DNA of 64,000 nt, taken from positions 64,001 to 128,000 of the forward strand of contig OY729427.2 in the NCBI GenBank assembly GCA_963422375.2, given 5' to 3'. Source of the DNA: Bryobacterales bacterium. Its GTDB lineage: Bacteria > Acidobacteriota > Terriglobia > Bryobacterales > UBA6623. The position numbers were made by a program, and so were the translations under genes. Positions within the stretch are counted from its first letter, which is position 1, and each line of letters begins with the position of its first letter. This document shows, in pieces, positions 3,952 to 47,938 of this stretch. The notes beneath the pieces were generated by a model. That model was given only the letters and a program-made list of their open reading frames with translations. It ran no database searches and was not told the origin of the DNA.

Positions 3952-4778
3952 CCCCCCACTGCCGCGGCTCCAGCGTGCAGTCCGGCACGGCCCACCCTTC
4001 GATGCCGTACCGTTGCCGCGGCTGCGGCAAGCGCTTTTCGGTGCGCACCGGCAGCGTGATGGCCGACACCAAGCTCGGCTACCGCACCTGGGCCGTCGCC
4101 CTGTTCCTGCTAACCACCGGCATAAAGGGCGTCTCCAGCATGAAGCTGCACCGCGACCCGGGCATCAGCCGGAAGTCGGCCTGGCACCTCGCGCACCGCA
4201 TCCGCGCGTGCCGGGAGCGGGATCGGGGCCTGTTCGCCGGCCCGGTGGAGGTGGACGAGACGTACGTCGGCGGCAAGGAGCGCAACCAGCACGAGAGGAA
4301 GAAGGCCCGCGCCGGGCGCGGGCCCGTCGGCAAGACGTCCGTGGCGGGCGCGCGGGACCGCGCCACGAACGCAGCGGCCGCGCAGCCGCTGCCGGGTACG
4401 ACCAAGGGCGACCTGCAGGGCTTCGTGCGCGGCCGGGTCGCGCCGGGCGCGCAGGTCCGCTCCGACGAGGCGGCGGCCTACGCCGGCATAGCGGAGTTCC
4501 CGCACGAGGGTGTCCAGCACTCCGGCGGCGAGTACGTGCGCGGGGCGGCGCATACGAACGGCATCGAGTCGTTTTGGTCCCTGTGCAAGCGCGGCCTGTA
4601 CGGCACCTATCACCGGATGAGCGTCCGTCATCCGGGTCGCTACCTCACGCAGTTCGCGGGACGGTGCAACGACCGCGACTGCGACACGGCGGAACGGATG
4701 CGGCGCATGGCGCGGGGCCTGGTCGGCCGGACGCTGACCTACCGGCAGCTGACCGGCAAGGCCGCGGTCTCGGCCTGA
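3952..4778 (+). pseudogene. IS1595-family DDE transposase lacking N-terminal ~45 aa
   Basis: Zn-ribbon (PHC...YRCRGC), VEVDETYVGG, RSDE, HTNGIESFWS..KRG. Confidence 0.88.
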
Positions 4779-5193
4779 GCGGCGCCCTCCGAGCTGAGCG
4801 CGGCAGCCCGCTGCGGACGCGCTCTTCACGCTCGGTGCGCTTCACGCTCGGTACGAGGGGCGCACCGGATCCGGAATGCCCCGGTGCGACCCCGGTCCGG
4901 CCCGGACCGTCCATGCAGGCCGTCAAGCGCCGGGGATCCGCTGTCTTCGGCCCTCGGAGGGCACGCAAGCGGCCTGCAAGGGGTGCCCTCCACCGCAAAC
5001 CGGATTCCACCGGGGCATGCGAGGGGGCCTCTCTAATCCGTGCCTCGTCAATTCCGCGGGCAGGTTCGATTCAGATACGATCCCGCCTTGCTGTGCCTAC
5101 CGCGGCCGCATTCGAATGACCCGAGCCAGACGCCGACCTCCCTGATCACAGCAGTTTTCGTCGGACATGGCGTTGTCGGCACTCAGATATATA

Positions 5194-5448
5194 GTGCTTG
5201 TGACAAAACCCCTGAATTCTGGCCCGATCAGCATTTCATACTACATCCTGAGTTCGGATAGATCTCCAAACACAACATATAGGGCCCAAGGTCGGAAGTT
5301 GCTCAGACGCCAATCGCGAAGATTTCCGCGCTCTACCCAGAATCGCCAGGATTTCGGATTAGTCGTAGCATTCCAGCGAAATCTTCGCCTTGAGAGATTG
5401 GACCTAACGCCTTTGTTGTCAAGGGGATACGAGTTTTTTCACGGGCAC
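5194..5448. mobile_element. 255-bp MITE with ISDol1-like ends, 6-bp TATATA TSD, inside the IS1595 right TIR
   Basis: Ends GTGCTTGTGACAAAA / TTTTCACGGGCAC; TATATA at 5188-5193 and 5449-5454; second copy at 12576-15414. Confidence 0.85.
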
Positions 5449-5460
5449 TATATAATTCCC

Positions 5461-6226
5461 ATTCGAAACCTAGCACCGGCCGATGCGGATCCGATCCAGC
5501 GGGCCAAGCTCGCGGCGGTCATCGAGCAGGACAGCTTCCTGTCCGAAGCGCAAGGCGGGGACGAAGCCGTCGAATCCGCGATCCGGAACTACGAACTCGC
5601 GTACCGCATGCAGTCCTTGCTGCCGGACGTGCTGGATCTAAGCAGGGAGACAGCCGCCACGAAGCGCGCGTACGGGCTCGAGGCGGAGGAAGAGGAGGCG
5701 CGGCGCTATGCCACGCAGTGCCTCAGGGCGCGCCGTCTGATCGAAGCGGGCGTCCGGTTCGTGGAAATCACCTGCGCGGAGGTCTACGGAGGCAACAACG
5801 GCACCTGGGACCAGCACACCGACCTGAAGAAGGGTCACGAGGGCAACGCGAGGATCACCGACCGGCCCGTGGCGGCGCTGCTTGGCGACCTCAAGGCGCG
5901 CGGAATGCTTGACGAGACGCTGGTGGTGTGGGCCACGGAGTTCGGCCGCACGCCGGACATCGGCAACGGCGACGGGCGGGACCACCACGAGTCGGGATTC
6001 ACGATTTGGATGGCGGGAGGCGGTGTGCGGAGGGGGCTGGTGTACGGCTATACGGACGAACTCGGGGTGCATGCCGTCGACAACGTAGTGTCCATTCACG
6101 ACCTGCACGCAACGATTTTGCATCTCGTCGGGCTGGACCACGAGAGGCTGACCTACTCGCTTCGGCGGACGCGACATTTCACTGACCGACGTACATGGGA
6201 GGGTGGTCCGCGACTTGCTCGCATGA
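5461..6226 (+). pseudogene. DUF1501 protein, 3' fragment (5' part lost at IS end; +1 frameshift near 6157)
   Basis: YELAYRMQ, CLRARRLIEAGVRFVE, WDQH, EFGRTP, GRDHH; ends ..RFGGRDISLTDVHGRVVRDLLA* in the shifted frame. Confidence 0.85.
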
Positions 6227-6251
6227 GGGCCGGGCGGGCTCCTGCGGACCA

Positions 6252-7151
6252 CTATCGCGAGCGCCCGAAGATCTGGACGCGCTCTCCCTGAACCTCCGTT
6301 ACGTACAGGCGGCCGCGCTGGTCGACGTCCATCAGGTGCGGCAGCTTGAGCGTCTCGGGATTCCCCCATTGCGCGGTCATCTCGCCATCTCCCAGCCGCA
6401 AGTGGCTGATCGTGTGGGCGTCACCGTCCGAGACGATCAGCTCGTCGCCGACCACCAGTACGCCGAAGGGATTGCCGAAACCGGTCCACGCCGCGAGGAA
6501 CTCGCCTTCCGGGGAAAACACCTGCACGCGATCGTTGCCGCGATCCGCCACGTAGATGCGGTCTTGCGGGTCGATCGCGATTCCGTGGGCCGCGGCGAAC
6601 TCCCCCGGGCTCTTTCCCTTGCGCCCCCACTGCGAGACGAACCGGCCATCCGGGGAGAGGCGCACGATGCGGCCGTTTCCGGCGTCAGCCACATAGATAT
6701 CCCCGTTCGAGGCGAATACCAGATCGTCTGGCGAACGGAAGTGACTGCGATCGCTGCCGCTAACCGACTTCTCGCCGTACGTCGCAAGGACCTCGCCGTC
6801 AGGCGAGAACTTCCACAGCACGTGCAGCTGGTTGTCCGTCGCCCAAACGTAGCCGTCCGCGTCGACGCGCAGGCCGTGCGCCACGCCGAATTCCCCTCGG
6901 CCCCAGCCGTGGCTGAACCTGCCGTTGGCATCGTAGGCCAGCAGGGGCGGCTCGCCCCTGTGCAGCACGTACGTCCGACCGGCAGGGCCAACCGCCACGG
7001 CGGAGACCGCGCCGACCTGCACGTCGGAAGGAAATTCCAAGAAGCCCTCGGAGCGGTAGGGGCCTTCCGCTTGAAGCGAGACCGCGCCCCACGCAACCGC
7101 CAGGGCGAGCCGCAGCCAGCCGCGCCGCGGCAAGGATACTTTGACCACCAT
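6252..7151 (-). CDS. NHL-repeat beta-propeller (peptidyl-alpha-hydroxyglycine amidating lyase-like), secreted
   Basis: Repeats AHGLRVDADGYVWATD, PDDLVFASNGDIYVADAGNGRI, AHGIAIDPQDRIYVADRGNDRVQVF; signal peptide from ATG 7151. Confidence 0.87.
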   Translation of the reverse strand: MVVKVSLPRRGWLRLALAVAWGAVSLQAEGPYRSEGFLEFPSDVQVGAVSAVAVGPAGRTYVLHRGEPPLLAYDANGRFSHGWGRGEFGVAHGLRVDADGYVWATDNQLHVLWKFSPDGEVLATYGEKSVSGSDRSHFRSPDDLVFASNGDIYVADAGNGRIVRLSPDGRFVSQWGRKGKSPGEFAAAHGIAIDPQDRIYVADRGNDRVQVFSPEGEFLAAWTGFGNPFGVLVVGDELIVSDGDAHTISHLRLGDGEMTAQWGNPETLKLPHLMDVDQRGRLYVTEVQGERVQIFGRSR

Positions 7152-9186: not shown

Positions 9187-9201
9187 TTAGGGAATTATAT
9201 A

Positions 9202-11059
9202 GTGCTTGTGACAAAACCCTGATATTTTGGGTATTCTAGCTGATAGATCCCCACCAAATGATAGCTATGGAAGAAACAGTCTGCGCCAATTAACCGAACT
9301 CATTGCCTCATATTCCATTTTCATTGTGAGGATACAGTTAGTTCTGTTCTAGTTGTACACTTTTCCTGAACCTTGTCTCTTCAAGGTTTCAATTCAGGGC
9401 AATTCAGATCGCTGCCGACTGCCTATGCAGCCAGCGGCAAGGGTCCCGTCTTGAGACGCTCCCTCTCTCTGTCGCGCACGATCCGGCCCGCTCGATGCAC
9501 GTTCGCCGCCAGGACCGCTAGCCCGATCATCCGCTCGAATCCCTCCGCTCCCCGGTCCATCACCCTGTCCGGACCGCGGCACTCGAGATTGTTGATCGCG
9601 GACTCCACGGCCGGGTGCGCCTGCCTCGCTGCCACGAATTCGGGCGCGCATTCCGTCGCCTTCGCCGCCTTCGACAGCCTCCCCTTCCGCGGCATCGCGT
9701 GGCACGACAGCAGTTCCGCCAAGCGCGTCCGGTTCGCCGGGCTGCGAAAGCCCTTGTCGAAGCTGCAGCTCGACAACCCCGCGTACAGCCCCTGCGCGCC
9801 CTCGACGATTCCCACCGCTACGTCCGCGTCGCTCCCCTTGCACATCACTTCGTGATTCATCACGAATCGGTGCTCGCTTTCCACGATGCATACCGGAACG
9901 CCCGGCTCCACCGGCACCCCCGCTTTTCCTTTCACGCACCAGCGCGTGTGTTCCTCGAAGATCGAGAACACTTGCTCCTCGTGCGGGATCTTCTCCCCCC
10001 GCAGCACGCGCCGCTCCACCGGGTCCGCCAGGAGCTGCACGCACCCGAGGTAACTCCTTGCCGCTCGCAAGGTTCCCTCGTCTTCCCCGGCCTGCGCCAG
10101 GGCCGCCAGCGCACCCTCCGCCCGCCGCGCTATCTCCAGGGCCGCCTCCAGGTACGACCGCACCCTCTCCGGGTTGCCTTGCCTCCTCTTCGCCTGCCGC
10201 ACCCGGTTGAATTCCTGCTTCAGCGTCTTCGGCAGCCGCGCGCTCTGCCGCCAGCCCGCGATACCGCGCCCCTTGCACAGCGGCGCAATAGAGCGAATCA
10301 GGCAGCGCAACGCGTCCCGCAGCAGACTCACCTCCGTCGGGTAATGCACGTTCGTTTCCACCGCGAAAGAGTCGCACCGCGCCTTCAGCGGATCGCCTTC
10401 CTCGCGCCCCGCCAGCGCGTGCCCTTCCTGCACCACCAGCTGATTGATTTCCGCGAGGAGGTCGGGCGTGAGAAGCTTCGGATTCCGGTTGACTGTCCGG
10501 TAGCTGAAGACCTGCTCGTCGAGCGTCGCGTTCAGACCGAGGAAGCGCCGGACGTCCGCGTGCTTGTTCGCCAGCTCCGTCACGCGGCCGTAGTCGCAAT
10601 TCAATCCCTGCTTGAGCAGGCCCGGGACGAGAATATTCCACAGCTGCATGCCGGGACGACCGACAGCAGGGTTGATCCTGCCGGACTCGCCTGCGGAAGG
10701 ATCGCTTCCGTTCTCGCCGTTCCCGCCGTTCCCGCTACTCTCACCGAGGCCGAGGATACGGCTCTCGAGCAGTCCGAAAACCCTGTCCCGCAACTCCTCG
10801 GTGGGATAGATGAATTGTATTCCTAGCAAGATGGCCGGGATATCTTCGCGGGAACGGACGTCGAGATCGATATCCTCGATTGCAGTCCGGCCAAGGGTGA
10901 GCTGGCTCTCCTGAACGGTCCTCACGGGCGGTTCCTCAACGAAGATTGTCGCACAACCCCCGGAAACGCGCAAGCCGGCCCGGATCGCCCCGATCTTCGT
11001 CCCACGGACCTGCTGCAACCTCCCGGAAACTAAGAGCTTGCGCGTTCTGTCACAAGCAC
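9202..11059 (-). mobile_element. ISNCY element, ISDol1-like, 1858 bp, TATATA TSD
   Basis: TIRs GTGCTTGTGACA / TGTCACAAGCAC; TATATA at 9196-9201 and 11060-11065; size and 6-bp DR fit the ISDol1 group as I recall it. Confidence 0.82.
9423..10925 (-). CDS. ISNCY-family transposase
   Basis: GTG start with GAGGA RBS; GRPGMQLWNIL, RCDSFAVETNVHYPT, SFDKGF, HPAVESAINNLE; open frame with suspicious Pro substitutions. Confidence 0.82.
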   Translation of the reverse strand: MRTVQESQLTLGRTAIEDIDLDVRSREDIPAILLGIQFIYPTEELRDRVFGLLESRILGLGESSGNGGNGENGSDPSAGESGRINPAVGRPGMQLWNILVPGLLKQGLNCDYGRVTELANKHADVRRFLGLNATLDEQVFSYRTVNRNPKLLTPDLLAEINQLVVQEGHALAGREEGDPLKARCDSFAVETNVHYPTEVSLLRDALRCLIRSIAPLCKGRGIAGWRQSARLPKTLKQEFNRVRQAKRRQGNPERVRSYLEAALEIARRAEGALAALAQAGEDEGTLRAARSYLGCVQLLADPVERRVLRGEKIPHEEQVFSIFEEHTRWCVKGKAGVPVEPGVPVCIVESEHRFVMNHEVMCKGSDADVAVGIVEGAQGLYAGLSSCSFDKGFRSPANRTRLAELLSCHAMPRKGRLSKAAKATECAPEFVAARQAHPAVESAINNLECRGPDRVMDRGAEGFERMIGLAVLAANVHRAGRIVRDRERERLKTGPLPLAA

Positions 11060-11138
11060 TATATATCTGAGTGCCGAGGGAATCAAGTCGGCAAATTATC
11101 AAGCCATAATAAGATTTCATATTTCTTCCGACTTTCCG

Positions 11139-11168
11139 TTGACATTCTGTAGTGTTTCTTGGTAGAAT
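11139..11168 (+). promoter_or_regulatory. sigma70-like promoter of the IS1595 transposase
   Basis: TTGACA-N18-TAGAAT; both hexamers conserved at 23341-23370 (+) and 54099-54128 (-) while the spacer differs. Confidence 0.65.
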
Positions 11169-11191
11169 AGTTCCAGTATGGGATACCGTAA

Positions 11192-12160
11192 ATGAAGAAA
11201 CAAGATCCCGGAAAGTGGTTCCGTAAAGGCATCACATTGATCGAAGTGATCGCCATGTTCCCCGATGACGAATCCACGGAAAGATGGTTCGCTGCCATGC
11301 GCTGGCCAGGACGGCCCCGCGTGCCCCCACTGCCGCGGCTCCAGCGTGCAGTCCGGCACGGCCCACCCTTCGATGCCGTACCGTTGCCGCGGCTGCGGCA
11401 AGCGCTTTTCCGTGCGCACCGGCAGCGTGATGGCCGACACCAAGCTCGGCTACCGCACCCGGGCCGTCGCCCTGTTCCTGCTGACCACCGGCATCAAGGG
11501 CGTCTCGAGCATGCAGCTGCACCGCGACCCGGGCATCAGCCGGAAGTCGGCCTGGCACCTGGCTCACCGCATCCGTGCGTGCCGGGAGCGGGATCAGGGC
11601 CTGTTCGCCGGCCCGGTGGAGGTCGACGAGACCTACGTCGGCGGCAAGGAACGCAACCAGCACGAGAGCAAGAAGGCCCGCGCCGGGCGCGGGCCCGTCG
11701 GCAAGACCCCGGTGGCGGGCGCGCGGGACCGCGCCACGAACGCAGCGGCCGCGCGGCCGCTGCCGGGCACCGCCAAGGCCGACCTGCAGGGCTTCGTGCG
11801 CGGCCGGGTCGCGCCGGGCGCGCAGGTCCGCTCCGACGAGGCGGCGGCCTGCGCCGGCATGGCGGAGTTCCCGCACGAAGCCGTCAAGCACTCCGGCGGC
11901 GAGTACGTGCGCGGGGCGGCGCATACGAACGGCATCGAGTCGTTTTGGCCCCTGTTCAAGCGCGGCCTCTACGGAACCTATCACCGGATGAGCGTCCGTC
12001 ATCCGGGTCGCTACCTCACGCAGTTCGCGGGACGGTGCAACGACCGCGACTGCGACACGGCGGAACAACGGCGGAACAGATGCGGCGCATGGCGCCGGGC
12101 CTGGTCGGCCGGACGTTGACCTACCGGCAGCTGACCGGCAAGGCCGCGGTCGCGGCCTGA
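11192..12160 (+). pseudogene. IS1595-family transposase, frameshifted (~11308; 11-bp duplication 12057-12078)
   Basis: MKKQDPGKWFRKGITLIEVIAMFPDDE in one frame, catalytic core in another. Confidence 0.88.
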
Positions 12161-12754
12161 GGCGGCGCCCTCCGCGCCGAGCGCCGCAGCCCGCTGCCGA
12201 CGCACTCTTCACGCTCGGTGCGCTTCACGCTCGGTGCGAGGGGCGCGCCGGATCTGGAATCCCCCGGCGCGACCCGCGTCCGGCCCGGACCGTCCGTGCA
12301 GGCCGTCGAGCGCCGGGGATCCGCTGTCTTCGGCCCTCGCAGGGCACGCAATCGGCTTGCAAGGGGTGCTCTCCACCGCCAACCGGATTCCACCGGGCAT
12401 GCGAGGGGGCCTCTCTTATCCGTGCCTCGTCCATTCCGCTGGCAGCTTCGATTCAGCTACGATCCCACCTTGCTGTGCCTACCGCGGCCGCATTCGAATG
12501 ACCCGAGCCAGACGCCGACCTCCCTGCTCAGAGCAGTTCTCGTCGGACATGGCGTTGTCGGCACTCAGATATATAGTGCCCGTGACAAAACTCGTATCCC
12601 TTTGACAAAAAAGGCGTTAGGTCCAATCTCCCAAAGCGAATATTTCGCTGGAACGCTACGACTAGTCCGAAATCCTGGCGATTCTGGGTAGAGGTCGGAA
12701 ATCTTCGCGATTGGCGGCTGAGCAACTTCCGACCTTGGGCATTATATATCCTGA

Positions 12755-13702
12755 TTACCCACAAGACTCAGCCAAGGTTAGGAGGCGGTAAGGCATGGGC
12801 GGGGTGCGCACGGAGGCGTGGAGCAGGCGGGGGACCAGCGCCTCCAGGTCGTAGCGGCGGTTGAAGCGGTAGCGGAACTCGGCGAGGTACCGCGGCAGGT
12901 GCTTGCCGTCGAGCGCATGGCAGGTTCCCGCCGGGGACTGCTTGACGTTCGCCAGCATCGTGTTGACCCGGACGAAGCGCGAATCCGCGCAGCTCCGCTT
13001 CCCGCCTCCGGTGACGGTCGGCACGTGCTCGCAGCCGGCGCCGGCCACGCCCCGGAAGCAGGCCGGGCCGTCGGAACGCACCTCCGTGCCGGGCTGCAAG
13101 TGCCGCCCGGCCCATGCTGCCAGCGTCTTCTTGCGGCAGCCCGCCACGCCGCTCATGCGCATCCTTGCCGGCTTGCCGGCGGCGGTGACCTGCACGGCGG
13201 CGACGAACGGCGTCTTGCCTGCCGCGCCGCGCCCGCGCTTGCCGCCGGTCCGCTCCCCGCCCCGGCAGGCGTCGTCCACCTGCACGATGCCGCCCAGCGG
13301 CACGCGCTCGTCGCGCTCCTTCATCACTTGCAGGAGCTTGTGCTTCATCTTCCAGGCCGTGTTCCGGCTCACGCCCGGCTGCCGCGCCAGTTCCAGCGAC
13401 GAAACGCCGTGCTGGCCCTGCGTCAGCAGGTGCAGCGCCAGGAACCAGACGGTCAGCGGCAGCTTGGTGGCGGCGAAGATCGTGCCGGCGACGAGGGAGG
13501 TCCGGCGGTGGCAGGCGTGGCACTGCCGGAGCTTGCGGGAGCGGATGCGGCAGTGCCGGCGGGAGCCGCACTCCGGGCAGCGGAAGTCGTCCGGCCAGCG
13601 GGCGTTGAAGACGGCCTGCTCGCATGGCCCCTCGCTGCCGTAGCGCTGCAGGAACTTGCCCAGGCTGAGTCCCTTCTGGAATTGCACGCGATTGCGTTTC
13701 AT
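12755..13702 (-). CDS. IS1595-group transposase (probably inactive)
   Basis: MKRNRVQFQKGLSL, CPEC..CHAC, VQVDDA, RSDG, VNTMLANVK, YLAEFRYRFNRR. Confidence 0.85.
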   Translation of the reverse strand: MKRNRVQFQKGLSLGKFLQRYGSEGPCEQAVFNARWPDDFRCPECGSRRHCRIRSRKLRQCHACHRRTSLVAGTIFAATKLPLTVWFLALHLLTQGQHGVSSLELARQPGVSRNTAWKMKHKLLQVMKERDERVPLGGIVQVDDACRGGERTGGKRGRGAAGKTPFVAAVQVTAAGKPARMRMSGVAGCRKKTLAAWAGRHLQPGTEVRSDGPACFRGVAGAGCEHVPTVTGGGKRSCADSRFVRVNTMLANVKQSPAGTCHALDGKHLPRYLAEFRYRFNRRYDLEALVPRLLHASVRTPPMPYRLLTLAESCG

Positions 13703-13704
13703 CT

Positions 13705-15243
13705 GAGCCTTTTGCAAAAATCCCGAGCTCATAGCATTATCATTTAGTTAGTCTATTAAGTATTCGATATAATCAATGGAATAGAACTGTAGTAAATGTA
13801 GTTTTAATGGCTTATCATGCGTTTTGAGTTTCCTGGAAATCCCTTGCCATCCGTGCTATTATTGTAATGCAAGCCTAGTAAGCAGCTGGCAGGATTCAAC
13901 GAATATGTCCTTGATAGAAACCGTATCCGCGTACTGGTTCACGTTCCAGCAGGGGCTGTTCCCCTGGCTCGAGCAGGAACTCGGCCCCCTCGGCGAGCGC
14001 TACCGCAGCTTCGTCCAAGCGGTGGAACGGGCGCAGGTCGAGGACTGCCTGCCCGTCGGGCAGGGCGGCCGCGGCCGCCCCCTCGAAAGCCGCGCCGCCA
14101 TGGCGCGCGCCTTCATCGCCAAGGCCGTCTTCGACCAGCCCGCTACGCGCTCGCTGGTCGAGCGCCTGCAGACCGATCGCACCCTGCGCCGACTGTGCGG
14201 CTGGGACCTGGCCGGGGCCGTGCCCGGCGAGGCAACCTTCTCGCGCGCCTGCGCCGAGTTCGCCGCCGGCGAACTGCCCGGACGCTTGCACCAGGCGCTG
14301 CTCGCGCGGACGCTCGACGGCCGCTTGGCAGGGCACGTCTCCCGCGACTCGACCGCCATCGAGGGCCGCGAGCGGCCCGCCGGGAAGCCCGCGCCGGAAC
14401 CGGAGCCGAAACGCAAGCGCGGGCGCCCTCGCAAGGGCGAGCAGCGGCCGCCCGCTCCGCGCCGACTGGCGCGGCAGCCCGACATGAATCTCGAAGCAAT
14501 GCTGCACGACCTGCCGCAGGACTGCGATACCGGCACCAAGCGCAACGCCAAGGGCCGTACCGTCAGCTGGCGCGGCTACAAGCTGCATATCGACGCGATC
14601 GACGGCGGGATCCCGGTCAGCTGCCTGCTCACCTCGGCTTCGCTGCACGACAGCCAGGCCGCGATCCCGCTGGCGACACGGACCGCGGGCCGCGTCGACA
14701 ATCTGTACGACCTGATGGACAGCGCGTACGACGCGGCCGGGATCCGGGCCTTCAGCAAGCGGCTCGGGCACGTGCCGCTCATCGCTGTCAACCCGCGCGG
14801 CCGGACGGAGCTGCAGGCGGATCTGGCACGGGAGGCCAAGGCGCTGCGCAGCGCCGGGCGGGCGGAGCCCGCGCAGCTGCGCTACCGGGAGCGCTCGACG
14901 GTGGAGCGTGTCAACGGCCGCCTGAAGGACGATTGCGGCGGGCGCCGCGTGCGCGTCCGCGGCAAGGTGCTGTGCCACCTCCTGTTCGGCGTGCTCGCGC
15001 TGACGGTCGCGCAGCTCCTGCGCCTGGCGCTCCGAGAGCCCGGGCCGCCGGGACAGCCGCGAAGAGCGCCCGCCCGCAGGGCCGGGCCGGGAGAGCTGCG
15101 CCTGCACGCGGCCGCTCCCCGCAGGAGCGCCCCGCAGCCGAGCAAGCCCAGCTGAAGGGAGTCTTTTTCGGCGAGAATAACAGCCCGGAAACTAGTCGTT
15201 CATGGGGCGGTCAGCCCTCTTTTCTGAATTTTGCAAAAGGCTT
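13705..15243 (+). mobile_element. IS5/IS1182-like element, 15-bp TIRs, 4-bp TSD ATCT
   Basis: GAGCCTTTTGCAAAA / TTTTGCAAAAGGCTT; ATCT at 13701-13704 and 15244-15247; the uninterrupted site is visible in the sister copy near 46200-46215. Confidence 0.83.
13905..15155 (+). CDS. DDE transposase (IS5/IS1182-like)
   Basis: SRDSTAIE, GYKLHID, SLHDSQAAIPL, LMDSAYDA, YRERSTVERVNGRLK; the tail after CGA 15033-15035 looks like stop-codon readthrough. Confidence 0.82.
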   Translation: MSLIETVSAYWFTFQQGLFPWLEQELGPLGERYRSFVQAVERAQVEDCLPVGQGGRGRPLESRAAMARAFIAKAVFDQPATRSLVERLQTDRTLRRLCGWDLAGAVPGEATFSRACAEFAAGELPGRLHQALLARTLDGRLAGHVSRDSTAIEGRERPAGKPAPEPEPKRKRGRPRKGEQRPPAPRRLARQPDMNLEAMLHDLPQDCDTGTKRNAKGRTVSWRGYKLHIDAIDGGIPVSCLLTSASLHDSQAAIPLATRTAGRVDNLYDLMDSAYDAAGIRAFSKRLGHVPLIAVNPRGRTELQADLAREAKALRSAGRAEPAQLRYRERSTVERVNGRLKDDCGGRRVRVRGKVLCHLLFGVLALTVAQLLRLALREPGPPGQPRRAPARRAGPGELRLHAAAPRRSAPQPSKPS

Positions 15244-15426
15244 ATCTGCTAGCCCCTTTCCTAGCAGAGATTTCCGACCTCCTTCAGTATAGCATATCCT
15301 CGGCTGACGTTCGTTGGTAATCAGGTTATATATTGTGCTTGGAGCTTCAACTGACCTCAGGATGTAGTATGAAATGCTGATCGGGCCAGAATTCAGGGGT
15401 CTTGTCACAAGCACTATATAATTCCC

Positions 15427-15585: not shown

Positions 15586-15611
15586 CGCGGGCAGCTGCAG
15601 GGTCGCACCTC

Positions 15612-21891: not shown

Positions 21892-23255
21892 GGCCGTGGT
21901 CGCTTCGCTCCCGCGGCAGGCGCAGGTCGCCCGACAGCACCAGCCGCCCTTCGCGAACCAGCTCGTCCGCGCGCAGCTCGACCGCCAAGCGCATCTCCTC
22001 GCTGGCGTAACGCGCTCCGAACATGCGCGCGACCTCCCTCGCGCAGTCGGCCAAGCCGATGCCGACGTTGCGCTCGACGGCCCGCAGGATCGCATCCTTG
22101 ACTTCGGGCGGCGGGAGCATATCGACCCTGGGCAGCGACTGCGACCGGACGGAGCTGCGGTCACGGACAGTCACCGCCTCGATCCGGTCGCTGCGGTCAA
22201 GGAATCCCTTGGTCTCGTCGCCGTCCCGACAGACCTGCCCCCCGCCCACCGCCTGGCGAACGGCCGCTCGCGCGACCTCCTGGATTCTCGCCCCCGCCCG
22301 CTGGTAGCCTCACAAGGAGCTGAGACAGCGGACCACCTCGTCGGCGTGGACCGGTCCCTCCTCCTCGACGATTCGCGTCACGCACCGTTCCAGCAATGGC
22401 TCGGGCGCGACGTGGATCTCGGTTCCCTCGCTTTCCGGAACCAGGAACGAGGCTTCCCTGTACGGTTGCGGCGACTGATTCGCCGCCTCGGAGGTGCCGG
22501 ATCGCTGCACCTGGCGACGCGGCTCGGCGGCCGGGGCTATCAGCTCGGCACCTCCGACGGACCAGGCGCGGTCGATCGCCTCCAGCAATTTCGCCATCTC
22601 GTTGTCGCGGTCGTAGAACCAGTCCGTGCTCCAGATGCGGTGAAACCTCCAGCCCTTCTGCTCGAGAACGGTCTGGCGCAGGCGGTCCCGCTCGCGCGCC
22701 CAGCTCGAGGAGTGGTAGCGCGCCCCGTCGCATTCGATCGCTAGCACGAATCGCCCCTCGTCGTCCGGGTCGTACACCGCGAGGTCGATGCGGAATCCGG
22801 CCGAGCCCACTTGCGCGGCCACGCGGTGTCCGTGGCTCTGCAGGGCCATGGCCACGGCTTCCTCGAACGGGCTGTCCATTTCGGCGCCGGTCAGCACCGG
22901 CACGTCCAGCTCGCCGGTCTGGGCGTACTTGAGATAGCGCTTCAGCACCCTCGTGCCGGCATGCTTGGTCGCGTCGACCCGGATCTCGTCGTGGCGGATC
23001 GACGAGAACACGCGGCATCTTTCTCCGCGCCCGCGTGAAGAGGACATTCAGACGCCGCTCGCCTCCCTCGCTCGAGACCGGCCCGAAGTGTTGCGACATG
23101 TAGCCGCCCGCGTCCTTGCCGTAGCCGATCGAGATGAAGATCACGTCGCGCTCTTCGCCCTGGACGTTCTCGAGGTTCTTCACGAAGAATCCCTCGTCCC
23201 TGCCCTCCTTGCAGAACGCCTCGAGCTCGGGAAACTCAGCGCGCATGAATTCCAG
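21875..23255 (-). pseudogene. C-terminal part of an SF1 helicase-Vsr-like nuclease-DUF3320 protein (Hhe-like), truncated by IS1595
   Basis: VKNLENVQGEERDVI, GERRLNVLFTRAR, DSPFEEAV..FRIDLAV..AIECDGARYH..RERDRLRQ..RIWSTDWF, EEEGPVH; frameshift ~23025, stop at 22310-22312. Confidence 0.85.
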
Positions 23256-24650
23256 AGGAATTATATATCTGAGTGCCGGGGCAGCCGATTTGGAAAATTA
23301 TCAATCCATAAAGGAATTTGATATGTCTTCCGTATATCTGTTGACAGTCTGTGGAGTTTCTTGATAGAATAGTTGCAATATAGGAGGTCGTCATTGAAGA
23401 AGTCGAAGCAGAAAGGTCCCGGGAAGTGGTTTCGTAAAGGCATCACCTTGATCGAAGTGATTGCCATGTTCCCCGATGACGAATCCGCGGAAAAGTGGTT
23501 CGCCTCCGTGCGCTGGCCGGACGGTCCGGCATGCCCCCGCTGCCGCGGTTGCGGCAAGCGCTTTTCCGTGCGCGCCGGCAGCGTGATGGCCGACACCAAG
23601 CTCGGCTACCGCGTCCGGGCCATGGCCCTGTTCCTGCTGACCACCGGCCTCAAGGGCGTCTCCGGCATGAAGCTGCACCGCGACCCGGGCATCAGCCGGA
23701 AGTCAGCCCGGCACCTGGCGCACCGCATCCGCGCGTGCCGGGAGCGGGACCGGGACCTGCTCGTCGGCCCGGTGGAAGTGGACGAGACGTACGTCGGCGG
23801 CAAGGAGCGCAACAAGCACGAGAGCAAGAAGGCCCGCGCCGGGCGCGGGCCGGTCGGCAAGACCCCCGTGGCGGGCGCGCGGGACCGCGCCACGAACGCA
23901 GTGGCCGCCCGGCCGCTGCCGGGCACGACCGAGGGCGACCTGCAGGGCTTCGCGCGCGGCCGGGTCGCGCCGGGCGCGCAGGTCCGCTCCGACGAGGCGG
24001 CGGCCTGCGCCGGCATGGCGGAGTTCGCGCACGAGGGCGTCAAGCACTCCGGCGGCGAGTACGTGCGCGGGACAGCGCATGCGAACGGCATCGAGTCGTT
24101 CCGGTCCCTGTTCAAGCGCGGCTTCTACGGAACCTATCACCGGATGAGCGTCCGTCACTTGGGCCGCTACCTCACGGAGTTCGCGGGACGGTGCAACGCC
24201 CGCAACTGCGACACGGCGGAACGGATGCGGCGCATGGCGCGGGGCCCGGTCGGCCGGACGCTGACCTACCGGCAGCTGGTCGGCAAGGCCGCGGTCGCGG
24301 CCCGAGCACGGCCTGGCCGGTCCGCTGCGGCCTCTCTTCACGCTCAGTGCGAAGGGCGCTCCGGATCCGGAATCCCGCGCCGCGACCGGTGTCCAGCCCG
24401 GACGATTCATAGATGCAGCCGCCCTGGAAGGGGAGCCTCTCCACGGCAATCCGGGTTCCACCGGGGCGCCCGAGGCGGCCTCTCCGGTCCGTGCGTCGCG
24501 AGATCCGCTTGCAGGCGCAATTCAGATACGAACCGACCTTTCGGCGCCCACCTCGGCCGCACACGAAAGATCCGAGCTAGACGCCGACGTCCCCAAGCAG
24601 AGCAGTTCTAGCCGGATATGGCGTCGTCGGCACTCAGATATGTAATTCCC
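23256..24650 (+). mobile_element. IS1595-family element (ISNwi1-like ends); transposase 23394-24611 with in-frame Zn-ribbon deletion and lost stop
   Basis: AGGAATTATATATCTGAGTGCCG ... CACTCAGATATGTAATTCCC; CPRCRG|CGKRF (18 aa lost between TGCCGCGG repeats); GCC-TGA to GCC-CGA near 24303; no TSD. Confidence 0.9.
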
Positions 24651-25353
24651 CAAATAATTCGGAGAAAATATAGTCAGGAGGTAGACCAGTCATCTTAAGT
24701 GGCTCATAACGGATACGAGGGGTTTGCTCTATTCGCTCGCCTAGGTCCGGGGAAGATCTTCATTTGAAATATGTTTCAACATAGCGTTCCCGTCGACGAC
24801 CCAGTTGAAGCAGCGGTGTAGTGTCTGCAGACAACGCGCTTCTTTCCATCTCTTCCACAGTCGGTGCCTTCAGCGGCACGTTCGTCGGGTCAGGATCTGT
24901 CCGCGCCAGCTGCTCAATCAGGTCCTGCAGGTCTTGCATCCCAATCGAATCGGGAGTGGACCGAGACAGCACGGGTCCGAAGATTGTTTCTCTTCTCGAG
25001 GAACGCATTAGTGAACAGAAGGCCGTAGATTGCACACTGTACGTCATCCAATACGTTGTTCCCATTGTCAACCTAGCACAGTCGGCCCAGATGCGCTTGC
25101 ACTGCGTTCTGGGACGCGCTCCACCGAAGGCGAACGGCCCCTCCCTGCCCAAACGCATCGCGATTCACGCGACCCCTCGAGAACCGAGCGAAGGTCCGAG
25201 AGAGCCTGTGCCCGTTGAGCGCTGTAACCCAGCCGCCTACGCAAGGCATGCCGATCGTAGGCGGCGGAGGCTTCCGCCGCGCCTGGCGAATGCTGGCCCC
25301 GGCGGACGGAGGCGCGCTAGCGCCCGGATCGACCCGGCGGCCAGCCGGGGACG

Positions 25354-34338: not shown

Positions 34339-34380
34339 CAGCTACGACAGTACTGCTTGCAGCTACGACAGTACTGCTTG
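34339..34380. repeat. Perfect 21-bp tandem duplication
   Basis: CAGCTACGACAGTACTGCTTG x2. Confidence 0.9.
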
Positions 34381-40007: not shown

Positions 40008-42163
40008 CTGCCTTTTACCCATCAGTCTTGGTTGAGGGCAGATCTTGGTACAAGTTGCTGGCTTGGTCCAGGTCGATCAGCCGCTCGTACCTCTGCGTGG
40101 CCGTAGCGAGTCGCGTGTAGCCCTCCCGGAGAACCTCGTGCCCGGGCGGGGGGATCGTGCTTGCGGTTGAGACAGCTGCCGAGCATCGCCGTGGTGAGCA
40201 CCGCGCGATCTAGGTTGTCGGGCGCCGGCACCTGGCGAGCCTTGGCGAAGTCGCCCGGCGCCCACAGCTCGGCGTCGGAGAACAGATCGCTTGGCGGCAG
40301 TTCGGGCGTGTCCCGGCCCGGCAGCGTCATCACGGTCAGGCGCCAGGCGATCACCGCCTTGATCGTGACCGCCCGCTCGATCCGCTCGCCGCGGCGATGG
40401 CCGAGGTGTTCCGCCCGGCAGCCGGACTTGAGCACCCGGTACCAGTCCTCGATGCGCCAGCGCAGGCGATACCAGGCGAGGATGCGCTCCGCGTCCGCCC
40501 GCGTCCGCACCGGCACGCTCGTCAGCAGGAACCATTCCAGCGGCTCGGCGCCGTCCGGGGCCGCGTCTTCCCGCACGTGCACCATGTTCAGGCGAATCGG
40601 CTCGCTCCCGCGCTCGGGTCCCGCTGCCGGCGCCGGCAGCGGGACCGTCTGCCAGCGCAGCGCCACCTCGGCCGCGCGCGCCGGGCGCAACTCGCTCGGC
40701 GCACAGCTCGAACACGTCCGCCTCGCGGTCCATGACCGCGACCGGCCGGGTCCCCCGCAGCTGCCCGGCCAGCTCGGCCGTGTCCCGCAGCCCGCGCACC
40801 CAGCACTGCGTCTCGCGCAGCTCGGCCGGCTGGTGCTTCCCGGCCCGGCCGTCGGGGGCCTCGAACTGGATCAGCGGCACGCCCGGCGGGATGCCGTCGC
40901 CGTTGACGGCCGGCGTCGAGTGCATGTGCAGGCCGAGGGTGCCCTTGGAACGGCTGTTCCTGCCGATCAGCCCCGGGCCGACGCAGCCCGGACACTCGGC
41001 GAAATTGAGGTCGCTGCCGTCCTGGATGCACAGCACGACGGCTTGGCCGTCCATGCGCTCCAGCGTGCGCGCACGGTGGGGGGCGAGAATGCTGGCGGGC
41101 GTGACGGCGGCCTCGGCCGGCTGGTCGATCATGCGGTAGCAGGCTTTCATCAGGGCGCGGTCGGACCGGGCTGCGGAGACGAACGAGGCCCGCGGCGCGT
41201 CGGCCATGGCGGCCGCGCATTGCACCAGGCGGCGGCTCCAGCGTACATCTCCCAGCGGAGCGCCGCCGAACTCGCGCGGGGGCGGCGGGGGCGCGGGCAC
41301 GCCCGGCTGGCGGCGCCAGTCGTGCCGCAGGGGATACAGGAAGACGGCCTTGACGGGCACGGTCGCGCCGGTCGGGGCGCAGCGCCCGCGGCCGGCGGTG
41401 CGGCCGACGTGAATCCAGTTGGCGGCCTTGAAGCTGGTGCCGGCATGGTGCCGGCGGTCGACGAAGGTCTCCGCGAGCAGGGGCTCGTAGCCGTAGCGCT
41501 GCTGGAAGTCGGCGGGGAGGCGGCGCAGGCCCGGGGCGAGGGCCTTGGAGGCGAGGTTGCGGCACTGCGCGCCGGGCCGGATCAGGAAGCGGCTGAGGGC
41601 GATCACGCGATGCAGCCGGTTGCGGCGGCGCTCGGCGTCCCAGCCGATCCAGCGGTCGCGGTCGGCGAGAGCCAGGGCGGAGGCGGCGAAGCCGAGGGCG
41701 CCGAGGATGCCGTGCCGCGAGAGCGGCAGGTAGCGCAGCTGGGGGCCGACGTGGCAGGCGGCGCCGCGGGGATGCTCGCGGGCGATCAGCTCGGTCCGGA
41801 GCCGGCGGCTGCGGTCGTCGGCGACGAGTTCGAGGCGCAGGTCCTCGACGGCGCCGGCGCGGGCCGGCACGGACCGCGGGGCCCCGACGGGGTGGCCGAG
41901 CCGTCGCGGGCGGCCGTGCCCGCCGTGGCGGACGGGCGGCGGGAGAGCGATGCTGTCGCGGGCGTGGAGGGTCCGCAAAACCTTCAGGCAGGTGACCAGC
42001 TGGGGGTTTCGTCGTGGAAGCGGAAGTCGGCGCACACGTGCGCGGCGAGCGCGGTGCGGTGGGGGAAGGTCTCCGCGTCCAGCAGCGCTCGCAGGCGCAG
42101 GAGACCTCCGGGCCCGACAGCGTTTCGAGAATGCGGTTCCGGGGCATGACCCATAGAAGGCAG
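40008..42163 (-). mobile_element. IS4-family (IS50/Tn5-like) element encoding a DUF4338-fused transposase, frameshifted and deleted
   Basis: IRs CTGCCTTTTA / TAGAAGGCAG; GILGALGF..RDRWIGW..SRFLIRP..NLASKAL..ETFVD..AANW; EFGGAPLGD; IQDGSDLNF; MDREAD; WYRLRWRIEDWYRVLKSGC. Confidence 0.82.
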
Positions 42164-42187
42164 CTCGGCGTAGAAGGCAGCTCGGCG

Positions 42188-42370: not shown

Positions 42371-42472
42371 TGACCCCGGCCCGGCGTTTGCTCCGAAGGT
42401 ATTAGGGTGATCCAGAGACACCTCCCCAGCTCCACTTCGGCGATGTGTTGTTTCGATAGCCGGCTGGCGGGC

Positions 42473-43024: not shown

Positions 43025-43427
43025 CCGATCGCTTCCTCGGCATGGAGTCGCGACCCGGAAAACTCAAGATTGTGGGATGGTTCGCGCTCACCCGTCATCA
43101 CTTCCGAATCTTGCAGTCGCGATACGAGAAACTCGCAGGGGCCGTGCCCGACCGAGACGGCTCGGTCCCCGCGGACTACTGGAACGGAACTACTGCAGGA
43201 AGAAATGGCTGGGCCAGACCAGGCGGGATGCCTGCGGAGCCGCGGCACTCTCAGCGCCGATCCCGGAAGGAAACTAATTGATCAGTTCAGGCAAGCGTCG
43301 GCGCGGGCGTCCCCAAGCGGATCTGCACCGCAGGACGGCGCGCCCCTTGCTGCCCGGCAGGAACAACGAAACTGGAATCGTCGTGCGAGCCCGGTCGCGG
43401 GCCGCGGCACAGTGGAAGAACCCCCTC

Positions 43428-44260: not shown

Positions 44261-45009
44261 GCGCTTCCGCTCGGCTCCGGAGATCGCCGCCCGGGGGCGC
44301 CCGACGGCTGCCCGGCGCTCCGCGCCGGCGGTCGCGAGCGGCGGCCGGACAAGCCGGCCGCCGCGGAGCACCCGCGAGACGGGGCGCGAGCCCCGCATTT
44401 CGCCCGCACATGCGAATCGAAGGACCAACGGTCGCACCGTCGTTGCGGGACCCTGCCTGTTTGGATGGCCCTCGGAGGTCAGCGGCATTATCGGAAGTGT
44501 GAAGCGCGGAACACATCGTGGCCCGGGACCGGCAAGGCTCTGGGAGGTCGGATCTATTCGCGCGGTTCCGTTCCGTCCGGAAAGACGCTGGCGCAGGTAC
44601 CAGACGGCGAACCAAATGTCCGAACATCGGCCGTTTTAGGTTGTCCAAGAGGCTCGCACCGCAGCCGACCGGGACGGTGTGGCCGGGGCGACGAGCTGGC
44701 CGCAGGGACACGCAGACGGCCTTGGGGCGAGCAGCCGCGGACGCATGGATCGGGGCCTTGGCGCCGGCACATTCGAGTGGGAGACCGGTGTCGCCGGTGA
44801 CTGCGCCTAGCACGTCGACCAGCCGACGGGGACGGGTGCCGGGAGCGGCGCGGTCTACGCCGGGGAGGGCCGTCGGCGGCCGCGACTGCGGACGCTCTCC
44901 GCGAAATCCGCCGCGGTCGGTAACGGCTAGCTTGGGATCCGGTCGGCGACCGTGGCCGGGTCCGGGCGCCGGGGAAGCCCGCGCTCCCAAAGCGGCGGCC
45001 GCGTTACGC

Positions 45010-45280
45010 CCCTGCCGGGCGCGGTTGAGGTCCTCAGTCAGCGGCCCGTACACCTCGTCGCGGGCCCGCGTGGATTGGCGCAGCAGGCTGACGGTGAGGG
45101 TGCCCGCGGCCGGGTCCTAGCGCAGGTCGGACTCGCTGCAGAACAACGCCTGCACCGGCTCGCGGGCCGTCTGGGGCTTGGCCGGCTCGGGCGCGACTAC
45201 GGCCGCCTCGGGCCGGAAGGCCGCCATGCGCACAGTCGCGAGGAGGTGGTGGCGCAGCGGTTCGGGCAGGGTCATCACCT
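45010..45280 (-). pseudogene. C-terminal remnant of a putative transposase
   Basis: Manual translation LATVRMAAFRPEAA..ALFCSESDLR*DPAAGTLTVSLLRQSTRARDE..LTEDLN resembles C-termini of the type TIKMIAYRAET..DLIPD..TLTVRL..ELN (from memory). Confidence 0.45.
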
Positions 45281-45342
45281 AGTCCTCCGGGTTCGGCTCG
45301 CCCGCCAAGATCTGCTGCCGACACTGGCTCATGCCCCATGCC

Positions 45343-47938
45343 CAGCAGTTCTAGATTTGGCCATAAAGGTGGTGGATGAACGTTGTTTCGGAGGATGAGG
45401 TGAACAAGTTGACCGAGAGGTCGCGCTTCGAAGGCCGCCCCGCGGGAGTGTCGGACGGCTGGCAGGGCTGTGTCGCGATCCCGCGACGGGTCCGCCTGGT
45501 GCCAGGCCCGCGGGCGGACGCACTCCGGCGGTAGCCTGCTGCCGCAGCCGGCCGCTCGCCGGACGCTGCCGAGGCGAAGCTGCGCGGAGGCTAGGCCCCG
45601 GCCGACTGGCAGCGCGGCGGCGCGCGTCCGTCGCGCACCGCCGCCAGCAGAGCCCGCCAGTCCGGGAAGCGGTATCAGCGCAGCGCGACCCTCAGCTCCT
45701 TGAACAAGTCGCGGCGCGTGACCCGCTTGCACCGGCACTGCCGCCACAGCGCGCAGACGCACTGCAGCACCGCATGGAGCACGAAGGCGAACAGGCTCAG
45801 CACAACCGTCACGTTGGCCGGCGCGGCCTTGCCGTGCCCGAAGTTGCAGCCGTGCCGCGCCAAGCAGTTGAAGCCCTCGTTCTCGATCTTCCAGCGCGCC
45901 CAGCCGACCCGCGCGATCCGCTCCGCGTTGTCCGTGGTGACCGCGAGACTGGTGAAGAACCAGTTGGCGTAGGTACGCTTGCCGCCGCGCTCCGCGGCGT
46001 ACTCGATCCAAGTGCTCGGCCGGGTCCGGGCCGCGGCAGCCAGCCGGTCGATTGCACTGCGCCGCGCGCCTGCCGATTCTCTGGCACCTCGTACGAGTCC
46101 TTGTGGGATCCGGGCTTGCATACCCGGACCTGATTACCAACGAACGTCAGCCGAGGATATGCTATACTGAAGGAGGTCGGAAATCTCTGACAGGAAAGGG
46201 GCTAGCAGCTGAAACGCAATCGCGTGCAATGCCAGAAGGGACTCAGCCCGGGCAAGTTCCTGCAGCGCTACGGCAGCGAGGGGCAATGCGAGCAGGCCGT
46301 TTTCAACGCCCGCCGGCCGGACGGCTTCCGCTGCCCGGAGTGCGGCTCCCGGCGGCACTGCCGCATCCGCTCCCGCAAGCTCCGGCAGTGCCATGCCTGC
46401 CACCGCCGGACCTCCCTCGTCGCCGGCACGATCTTCGCCGCCAGCAAGCTGCCGCTGACCGTCCGGTTCCTGGCGCTCCACCTGCTGACGCAGGGCAAGC
46501 ACGGCGTTTCGTCGCTGGAACTGGCGCGTCAGCCGGGCGTCAGCCGGAATACCGCCTGGAAGGTGAAGCACAAGCTCCTGCCAGTGCTGAAGGAGCGCGA
46601 CGAGCGCGTGCCGCCGGGCGGCATCGTGCAGGTGGACGATGCCTACTGGGGCCTGCTGGGGCGGGGAGCGGAGCGGCGGCAAGAGCGCGGTCGCGGCGCG
46701 GCGGGCAAGACGCCGTTCGTGGCCGCCGTGCAGGTCACCGCCGCCGGCCAGCCGGCAAGGATGCGCATGAGCAGCGTGGCCAGCGTGGCGGGCTTCCGCA
46801 AGAAGACGCTGGCAGCGTGGGCCGGGCGGCACTTGCAGCCCGGCACGAAGGTGCATTCCGACGGCCCGGCCTGCTTCCGGGGCGTCGCCGACGCCGGCTG
46901 CGAGCACGTGCCGACCGTCACCGGAGGCGGGCAGCGGAGCTGCGGGGATTCCCGCTTCGTCCGGGTCAACACGATGCCGGGGAACGTCAAGCAGTCCCTG
47001 GCGGGAACCTGCCATGCGCTCGACGGCAAGCACCTGCCGCGGTACCTCGCCGAGTTCCGCTACCGCTTCAACCGCCGCTACGATCTGGAGGTGCTGGTCC
47101 CCCGCCTGCTCCACGCCTCCGTGCGCACCCCGCCCATGCCTTACCGCCTCCTAACCTTGGCTGAGTCTTGTGGGTAATCAGGTACCCGGATGTAGTCCAC
47201 ATGCCAGCGGCCTCGCAGACCGGCTGGCAACAGTACAGGTCGTCGCCCGGCAGGACGGGGCGGTAGGCCTGCAGCCAGGCGCCGTGAGCGGCGATCCAGC
47301 GCTTGGCGGCGTTGCGCTCGCAGTCCTGCTTGCGCTCGTCCTCGCTCATGTCGGCGCGGGTCGCGGCCGCGTCCTGCTGCGGGCGCACGAACTCGGGCAT
47401 CAGCGGCAGGACGGTGGCGTGGCCGTCGGCCACCGCGGTGGCCGCGACCATGGTGTGGAAGTGATGCGGCCGGCGCTCGTCGAGGCGCTGGAAGGGCTCG
47501 AGCGCGCCCTGCGCGGCCACGGTTTCGAGGCACAGCCGGAACGGCGGGTCGAACGCGGCCGGGTCGAGGCCGTCGAGCAAGTTGCGGATCCGGTGGGCGC
47601 AGGGGATGCGGCCCACGCCGAACAGGGTCCGGCAGTTGGAGCGGGAGCCGTCCCGCTCCATGCTCCGCTGGAATTCGAGGAACGACTCGCACTGGGTGAA
47701 GAAGCAGGCCAGGGCGCAACCGGCGGCGTCGCTGACCAAGTAGCGCGTGTTGCGACCCGTGCGCCGGTCGGGCAGGCCGGCGGCCGTCTCGCGGATGGCG
47801 CTCGGCAGCGCGTCCAAGACATGCGACATACATCCCAACTCGCAGATTGCGCGTCAAGCACCTGCCTGCGCCAGCCTGCCTTCGACACCCTTCTGAGACT
47901 CTCTGGAAATCCCAGAATGCCCAAATTGAGAATCGCTG
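45343..47938 (-). mobile_element. ISNCY element (ISMae2-like, CAG ends), internally deleted and interrupted by an IS1595-group copy
   Basis: IRs CAGCAGTTCTAGATTTGG / CCAAATTGAGAATCGCTG; LPDRRTGRNTRY..FFTQCESFL, KQDCERNAAKRW, GDDLYC, ARWKIENEGFN. Confidence 0.8.
46129..47182 (+). mobile_element. IS1595-group element, 1054 bp, 8-bp TSD TACCCGGA; transposase start ATG changed to CTG
   Basis: CCTGATTACC..GGTAATCAGG; TACCCGGA at 46121-46128 and 47183-47190; ORF 46224-47177. Confidence 0.92.

Follow-up and report, generated by a model that had tools for sequence, protein, structure and literature searches.

Why do sister copies of insertion sequences (ISs) in one bacterial genome differ again and again at the same short motif, and why does the allele CCGG so often look like the damaging one? 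The question was raised by a 64,000-nt stretch of a Bryobacterales bacterium (assembly GCA_963422375.2, contig OY729427.2; C1:64001-128000, hereafter the window), which is crowded with nested IS elements. A preliminary description of the window had pointed to ten pairs of positions in sister IS copies, and at all ten we found CCGG in one copy opposite CCAG or CTGG in its sister. The comparison of IS families over the whole genome reported here indicates that the change is T>C, that it is concentrated in the context S-T-G-G (S standing for C or G), and that it runs one way. We propose, as a reading of these sequences with about an even chance of being right, that biased short-patch repair of T:G to C:G drives gene conversion among the IS copies.

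The genome consists of three replicons, with 6.0 Mb in all and 67% GC, and its nearest relatives are ∼77% identical to it in DNA. Two of the families concerned, ISA and ISB, are of the IS1595 type, as the ISXO2-like DDE domain (PF12762) was matched in both and the N-terminal zinc ribbon (PF12760) in ISB. There are ∼110 to 120 ISA copies and ∼100 ISB copies genome-wide, besides ∼50 copies of family C, ∼68 of family D, ∼16 of family E, and ∼20 to 24 of the IS4-like family F. Identity between copies within a family is 88 to 96%. In same-genus relatives, the same IS types score identically or nearly so within each genome, which suggests that IS copies in the relatives are near-identical within a genome, unlike those studied here.

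We analyzed 85 ISB copies, each covering at least 90% of the element (consensus, 956 bp), and obtained polarized substitution spectra for four families (ISB, ISA, E, and F), with T>C and A>G counted together. The ancestral state was taken from intact homologous transposases of same-genus genomes, as the outgroup residue or, at synonymous sites, the outgroup base. Eight outgroup loci served for family E, and 70 of the 95 ISB polymorphisms in the open reading frame (ORF) were polarizable. Families C1, C2, and ISA2, with 2 to 3 full-length BLAST copies each, were left out, and the noncoding parts ISAL and ISAR contributed unpolarized data only. A change was termed common when shared by several copies (in the unpolarized ISB test, a transition polymorphism in at least 5 copies) and rare when present in at most 2 copies in large families or in 1 copy in small ones. 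Two other ways of polarizing were dropped. A tree of the 85 ISB copies required 1573 changes, up to 30 at one site, and was useless because the copies are mosaics; majority rule was unsuitable because, by the outgroups, the derived allele outnumbers the ancestral one at several sites. In ISB it is frequently the damaging allele that predominates, as for W86R (62/85 copies) and L213P (71/85 copies).

Without polarization, transition polymorphism in ISB was found at 12/53 C[Y]GG positions versus 26/899 other positions (odds ratio [OR] 9.8, p=2e-7), and the other families gave an OR of ∼2 (ISA, 2.1 to 2.3; E, 2.3; F, 2.0; ISA left arm, 1.8). Among polarized changes, common T>C affected 9/18 CTGG sites versus 5/261 other A/T sites in ISB (OR 51, p=3e-9), 5/8 versus 21/217 in ISA (OR 16, p=6e-4), 4/20 CTGG sites in family E (p=0.008), and 2/16 in family F (p=0.09). 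With the four families pooled, 20/62 CTGG sites were changed (CTGG versus the rest, OR 11, p=4e-12), and chance is excluded as the source of this enrichment. The motif had been described as CTGG/CCAG; its enrichment stood, but GTGG was changed as often as CTGG (13/41), and the motif as read from the sequences is therefore wider, S-T-G-G. ATGG was changed at 2/12 sites and TTGG at 2/15, for a total of 37/130 NTGG sites, and the control contexts gave 3/98 (CTGC), 5/75 (GTGC), and 0/47 (TTGC). The overall figure was 77/1465 for all A/T sites and 44/1362 outside CTGG and GTGG. All nine polarized T>C changes of ISB sit in C-T-G-G, Q67R being the version on the other strand.

The direction of the change is given by the outgroups. 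At most sites the altered ISB residues correspond to a conserved Trp, Leu, or Gln in 6/6 outgroups, and at derived SCGG sites the outgroups have Trp, Leu, Gln, or Val, in 6/6 or 11/11 of them at most sites. CCGG, which had been taken for the derived and damaging allele, is indeed derived at every polarizable site relative to intact same-genus transposases. Deamination of 5-methylcytosine at methylated CCGG gives CCGG>CTGG, the textbook direction, and could account for the allele pairs if the polarity had been misjudged. This explanation is refuted by the outgroup residues and by the scarcity of the reverse change: common C>T was found at 0/136 ancestral CCGG and 1/171 ancestral GCGG sites (1/307 SCGG sites together) versus 51/3304 of all G/C sites. 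We regard its probability as negligible, and the T>C excess agrees with the earlier claim that the process is the opposite of deamination.

Most of the allele pairs seen in the window belong to the common class. Six of the seven ISB pairs are common polymorphic sites (coding positions 44, 109, 259, 410, 442, and 752) and the seventh (12931/46998) is a singleton at position 773, while two of the three ISA pairs lie at common sites (137 and 230) and 4719/24246 is a rare variant. The odd residues noted in other IS proteins (HRDPG, GISRK, RQPGV, and SDGPA) proved to be L>P or Q>R changes relative to the outgroups. A proposed TGA>CGA change at 24303 was borne out as well, since CGA is present there and fits ISA site 824 (T in 42 copies, C in 23). 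The stop codons reported at 22310, 54986, 55457, and 54040 are present on the strand given for them.

Other contexts showed some structure of their own. The commonest polarized change in ISB is A>C (17/70, versus 5 T>G), which is rare in ISA (2/56); [A>C]AGC (K>Q) is the setting of five of these changes, and in one case the start ATG has become CTG, in 31 copies. In ISA, A>G occurs in T[A]CG at sites 312, 528, and 602 (window copy 3953-5193), giving Tyr>Cys twice and Thr>Ala once; this context resembles UACG, the TadA editing motif. C-T-A-C was changed at 6/18 sites in the pooled families.

The main rival is a mutational hot spot, in which a high T>C rate at S-T-G-G, perhaps in a past episode, was followed by neutral spread through transposition and conversion. 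It predicts the same motif, polarity, and asymmetry. Such a hot spot could arise if Vsr or another T:G enzyme mis-fixed replication mispairs or removed T opposite damaged adenine; two sources report Vsr-stimulated CTAGG>CCAGG mutation (PMC2715241) and excision by T:G glycosylases of T opposite damaged A in TpG, leading to TpG>CpG (PMC4041421). Rare T>C changes were found at 8/67 STGG sites versus 90/1309 of all A/T sites (OR 1.9, p=0.13), a small excess compared with one of more than 10-fold among common variants. The median derived frequency was 0.54 at SCGG; other A/T transitions had a median of 0.24 (p=0.003), and S>W changes one of 0.23 (p=0.0005). The CTGG sites of ISB are bimodal, with changes in 0 to 1 of the 85 copies at six sites and in 9 to 71 copies at nine. 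Both the high frequencies and the bimodality speak against a hot spot, although a past burst could mimic them; so does the fact that CTGG is not depleted genome-wide. On this evidence we hold a hot spot to be rather unlikely as the explanation.

Biased repair during conversion among IS copies would be expected to leave a signature that is strongest at one motif and stands above a weaker general GC bias, and this is what the spectra suggest. Of 242 polarized changes, 121 are AT>GC and 71 are GC>AT, or, per site, 8.3% of 1465 A/T sites and 2.1% of 3304 G/C sites. Codon positions 1, 2, and 3 hold nearly equal numbers of common variants (34/34/29), which indicates that these variants pass unfiltered by selection on the protein.

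We also looked into the exchange of variants between copies. In the ISB consensus, 607 of the 956 positions are invariant and ∼80 vary in at least 8 copies. Linkage between common polymorphisms decays quickly: mean r2 is 0.27 at 1 to 3 bp, falls to 0.05 at 4 to 10 bp, and is at background further out. The ISB copies (12750-13705 and 46206-47182 in the window) further display six recurrent tandem duplications of 9 to 14 bp at fixed positions, each in 6 to 18 of the 85 copies, which look like footprints of target-site duplication or slippage hot spots. These duplications are unlinked to single-nucleotide polymorphisms (SNPs) 5 to 10 bp away and to one another, with all four gametes in 404/480 duplication-SNP pairs. 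Since identical duplications are unlikely to recur by mutation, heavy ectopic gene conversion among the ∼100 copies would be the simplest account. STGG sites are less linked than others to neighbors 4 to 40 bp away in ISB (mean r2 0.014 versus 0.041, p=0.004) and in ISA (median r2 0.009 versus 0.023, p=0.02), as very short repair patches predict.

The distribution of changes among copies bears on another explanation, in which a few master copies carried the changes and the enrichment follows from the content of Leu (CTG) and Trp (TGG) codons. Such a family history finds support in family E, whose derived alleles per copy are overdispersed (variance 8.3 versus 1.9 expected) and which shows long-range linkage, and in the existence of ISA subfamilies. 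In ISB, derived alleles are distributed nearly independently (variance 2.6 versus 1.6 expected), and the enrichment is seen again in four unrelated families. Codon content also leaves the dependence on the next base unexplained, as the low rates at CTGC and GTGC contrast with the rate at NTGG given above. At the four polymorphic W>R sites of ISB (36, 59, 86, and 147), the TGG codon always follows a C; the single Trp codon identified as following a G (position 592) is unchanged. We consider an origin in family history unlikely.

Could the changes instead result from a repeat-targeted editing defense? The preliminary description had mentioned a process similar to repeat-induced point mutation (RIP) of fungi, which is a C>T change in repeats that needs repeat sensing and strikes both copies in one episode. 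An example would be an adenine deaminase whose target is CCA in transposon DNA that is duplicated or single-stranded, since the change on the other strand is A>G at C-C-A-S, and nearly all copies carry several changes (on average 4.1 of 9 in ISB and 5.3 of 10 in ISA). Like RIP, the process studied here comprises context-specific transitions that ruin genes in multicopy mobile elements. Unlike RIP, which consists of C>T/G>A in duplicated DNA, we found an excess of T>C and the near absence of C>T at ancestral SCGG; sensing is not indicated, and the changes are unlinked and shared among copies. They are also not clustered in particular ISB copies, and the weak signal among rare variants speaks against ongoing editing; nor did a candidate enzyme come to light, although no search was aimed at one. 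The RIP-like part of the earlier proposal thus fails on direction, and editing seems to us quite improbable. There is no sign of repeats being sensed or targeted; they supply heteroduplex partners and escape purifying selection.

An artefact of sequencing or assembly, for example a miscall linked to methylation or faulty polishing, deserves attention as the variants are located in repeats, which are hardest to polish, and the public runs come without a record of their library types. Against it, the 85 ISB copies of 956 bp contain one-base deletions in 8 cases and insertions in 3, and no more than 2 such variants occur at 15/19 consensus CCGG and 6/12 CTGG sites, so that miscalling is not motif-wide. 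The T alleles coincide with the Trp or Leu of the outgroups, and the unlinked duplications of 9 to 14 bp cannot be miscalls. Contigs from four public runs in two studies, at least 98% identical over 12400-14100, differ only at 12531, 12848, 14002, and 14029, none of which is a CCGG/CCAG site. These contigs are short and confirm local sequence, not phasing; 23 to 29 of 30 bins were covered per run, and gaps, such as that of run X1, which has no contig at 98% over 12799-13026, are neutral as evidence. Taken together, these data make an artefact very improbable.

The dependence on a single tetranucleotide context argues for a sequence-specific enzyme rather than general mismatch repair. The preliminary description had invoked a CCGG methylase with a Vsr-like activity, and half of this proposal received support. 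The genome contains one intact vsr gene at C2:2578401-2578835 (PF03852, 2.1e-30; TIGR00632, 154.1 bits with a cut-off of 97.85), whose product aligns with E. coli Vsr (1cw0, E=9.8e-30) and retains LPGRPD, HGCFWH, ERD, and WEC, which we take to be the catalytic, zinc-binding, and intercalating residues of the E. coli enzyme. A CCGG-specific methylase was not identifiable. The gene next to vsr on one side encodes a nucleoside phosphorylase and that on the other is an unrelated ORF, so that no methylase adjoins it. Orthologs of vsr with at least 60% identity are present in 24 of 30 genus relatives. In one of them (G022), an intact C5-methylase gene lies directly downstream of the vsr ortholog, and this methylase family is found in 12 of the 30 relatives. 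Its only match in our genome is a pseudogene at C2:398768-401145, made of two pieces 1.35 kb apart with IS-like DNA between them and two TAG stops, which covers residues 101 to 352 plus an N-terminal fragment. There are 18 matches to PF00145 in this genome. Other C5-methylase genes exist elsewhere in it, and two of the C5-methylases are not core to the genus. An identical 408-aa C5-cytosine methylase gene occurs three times, once per replicon (C1:1834182-1835405, C2:1339612-1340835, and C3:16782-18005), each copy adjoining fragments of a second methylase; the triplicate gene is probably a mobile element. Loss of mismatch repair was rejected as a candidate, as MutS (an 878-aa open frame) and MutL (631 aa) are free of stops.

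On this basis, the proposed biased repair would operate as follows. The several hundred IS copies would act as a recombining population in which ectopic gene conversion shuffles variants. Where a T allele meets a C allele at S-T-G-G, the heteroduplex would contain a T:G mismatch, and a sequence-specific short-patch repair would resolve it to C:G, the step that would carry the bias. The likeliest agent would be the Vsr endonuclease, followed by short resynthesis, and its motif in this organism might be N-T-G-G. The SCGG allele would thereby be overtransmitted and would rise among copies regardless of its effect on the protein, so that W>R, L>P, V>A, and Q>R changes would spread and the transposases decay. 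Loss of the partner methylase may have removed the opposing C>T flux. Biased repair on heteroduplexes between repeat copies had been suggested before, and the pattern fits it, the heteroduplex step being one that we infer. The fuller version, in which a Vsr orphaned by methylase loss became a one-way STGG-to-SCGG ratchet driving Trp>Arg, Leu>Pro, and Val>Ala through the IS pool, is put forward as a tentative possibility only.

The pattern is a variant of very-short-patch (VSP) repair and of biased gene conversion, both of which are known kinds of process. VSP repair first came to light through marker effects in crosses of phages. As in the Dcm/Vsr system of E. coli, a T:G in a short motif would be resolved to C:G, and a clear Vsr family member is encoded with its conserved motifs. 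The T here precedes GG, which matches C-T-W-G-G apart from the missing W. Among the differences, S-T-G-G was deduced from sequence alone, no methylase lies beside vsr, the effect is on IS allele frequencies instead of the protection of methylated sites, and there is no genome-wide oligonucleotide skew. According to one report (PMC2715241), VSP repair is mutagenic in the same direction (CTAGG>CCAGG), and Vsr, a competitor of MutH for MutL, is able to promote these mutations. GC-biased gene conversion is described in eukaryotes and has been proposed for bacteria (PMC4450053). Its marks are found here: there is recombination among copies, on which the effect depends, AT>GC derived alleles outnumber GC>AT, and the favored alleles reach higher frequencies irrespective of fitness, damaging changes included. 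It differs in that the exchange takes place between paralogous IS copies of one genome, not between alleles, and in that one tetranucleotide context dominates. Finally, aberrant T excision by TDG/MBD4 shares the direction TpG/CpA>CpG and the TpG core, and needs no preexisting C allele; these are, however, eukaryotic enzymes, for which the available part of PMC4041421 reports no significant effect of the base 5' of T and states no requirement at +2, whereas the +2 G is decisive in our data (NTGG versus CTGC).

Several observations weigh against biased short-patch repair as the driver. At the level of the motif, GTGG behaves differently among families (0/9 in ISB and 5/10 in ISA), two of the ISA GTGG calls (sites 449 and 507) are supported by 2 to 3 outgroups, and half of the ISB CTGG sites are unchanged. 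Beyond the IS copies, no genome-wide bias appeared: the observed/expected ratio is 1.056 for CTGG and 1.043 for CCGG, with neither depletion of the former nor excess of the latter, and in codon pairs NCT is as rare before GG as before GA. The closest relative (G003) has 12 E-like copies, a sample of low power with 10 near-identical and 2 divergent copies, in which 0/14 CTGG and 1/14 GTGG sites were changed. Family E reverses the linkage pattern, its STGG sites being more linked to their neighbors (p=0.04 at 41 to 160 bp). There may be a 2-fold hot spot among rare variants at STGG, and an older mutation burst may equally yield high allele frequencies. Searches of the C5-methylases in PDB and NCBIfam gave generic matches to which CCGG specificity is not assignable. 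Lastly, as vsr is found throughout the genus, it cannot alone account for a pattern in this genome; what sets this genome apart would be its large and old pool of IS copies that recombine, and perhaps a lost methylase.

The IS elements of the window that carry the changes are listed in Table 1.

Table 1. IS elements of the window and their derived alleles at the motif (positions in the window)
Element	Coordinates	Strand	Description	Derived alleles
ISA copy 1	3554..5200	+	IS1595-type; transposase ORF 3933-4778; PF12762 3.7e-35	SCGG: 4159, 4171, 4375, 4459, 4633
Family E element	9200..11045	-	565-aa ORF 9423-11120, no Pfam family; 13 near-full copies	SCGG: 10888, 10624, 10363, 10319, 9904, 9826, 9571
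ISA copy 2	11050..12600	+	ORF broken; repeat families D1-D3; PF12762 match on 11265-12119	SCGG: 11460, 11530, 11542, 11746, 11772, 11830, 12004
ISB copy 1	12750..13705	-	IS1595-type; ORF 12755-13732; PF12762 and PF12760	CCGG: 13528, 13503, 13377, 13065; further CCGG: 13262 (site 442), 12931 (singleton site 773)
Family F element	13710..15245	+	IS4-like DDE transposase, ORF 13824-15155; PF01609 and PF05598; 18 near-full copies	GCGG: 14323, 14947
ISA-type copy 3	23250..24655	+	Diverged subfamily; CGA at 24303 where a TGA stop stands in most copies	
ISB copy 2	46206..47182	+	ORF 46224-47177; PF12762 and PF12760; sits inside a family C element; flanks occur at ∼50 copies	CCGG: 46249, 46314, 46383, 46408, 46464, 46534, 46867, 46978
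ISA-type copy 4	52800..54220	-	Inverted relative to copy 3; inverted repeat I1, 97% over 907 nt; copy-number profile	

The arms of ISA (3569-3952 and 4810-5193) are inverted repeats of 384 nt that are 94% complementary, which is unusually long for an IS1595-type element. In family F, 24 of the 33 matches in this genome have no internal stop and four have one TGA, and most relatives with a match (G016, G011, G009, and G010; e.g., L070, L079, L071, and L072) have one in-frame TGA in their F-like transposases. This TGA could serve as a recoding site or separate two ORFs, an arrangement that this genome would have lost, and it may be relevant to the guess, made in the preliminary description, of a TGA>CGA change at 15033. 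Elsewhere in the window, protein domains include PSCyt1/2, PSD1, DUF1501, and sulfatases, a set characteristic of planctomycetes. A 652-aa ORF (40077-42035, minus strand) contains a Druantia DruA domain (1e-27) and a transposase DNA-binding domain (1e-7), and a 1448-aa ORF (48494-52840, minus strand) includes three tandem repeat units of 366 bp at 51317-52348 that are 61 to 76% alike. An island of low GC (54000-56400; 50% versus 67%) carries three consecutive ORFs, namely a C-terminal piece of a helicase, an unassigned piece, and an MrfA zinc-binding domain, which together resemble a single helicase gene, broken and foreign in origin.

The cost to the transposases can be read from the copies themselves. 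ISB copies carry between 0 and 8 of the nine polarized SCGG changes; an open frame is kept in 37/85 copies, and only 2 are without any of the nine. No ISA copy is free of the changes, and 35/65 have an open frame. As the sequences indicate, and as the preliminary description had held, the process degrades transposases, through W>R, L>P, V>A, and Q>R changes at polarized sites; there is no sign that this decay is its purpose. For annotation, the majority consensus is not the ancestral sequence in these IS families.

Literature searches on VSP repair or Vsr with gene conversion and insertion sequences, or with bacterial biased gene conversion, turned up no paper that describes this pattern, as judged by titles and abstract openings. 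The case for biased gene conversion in bacteria has drawn mostly on GC content and maps of recombination; in these IS copies, polarity per site, a motif, allele frequencies, and a candidate enzyme are available. If the mechanism holds, resequenced lineages of one strain would provide a simple assay system for conversion bias. If true, it would explain the 5 to 10% divergence and the mosaicism of the IS copies in this genome, and motif-specific biased gene conversion would be readable from a single bacterial genome. It would also mean that there is a passive, repair-based path to transposon decay, in which an enzyme whose repair is meant to protect methylated sites can also serve as a drive and degrade mobile elements.

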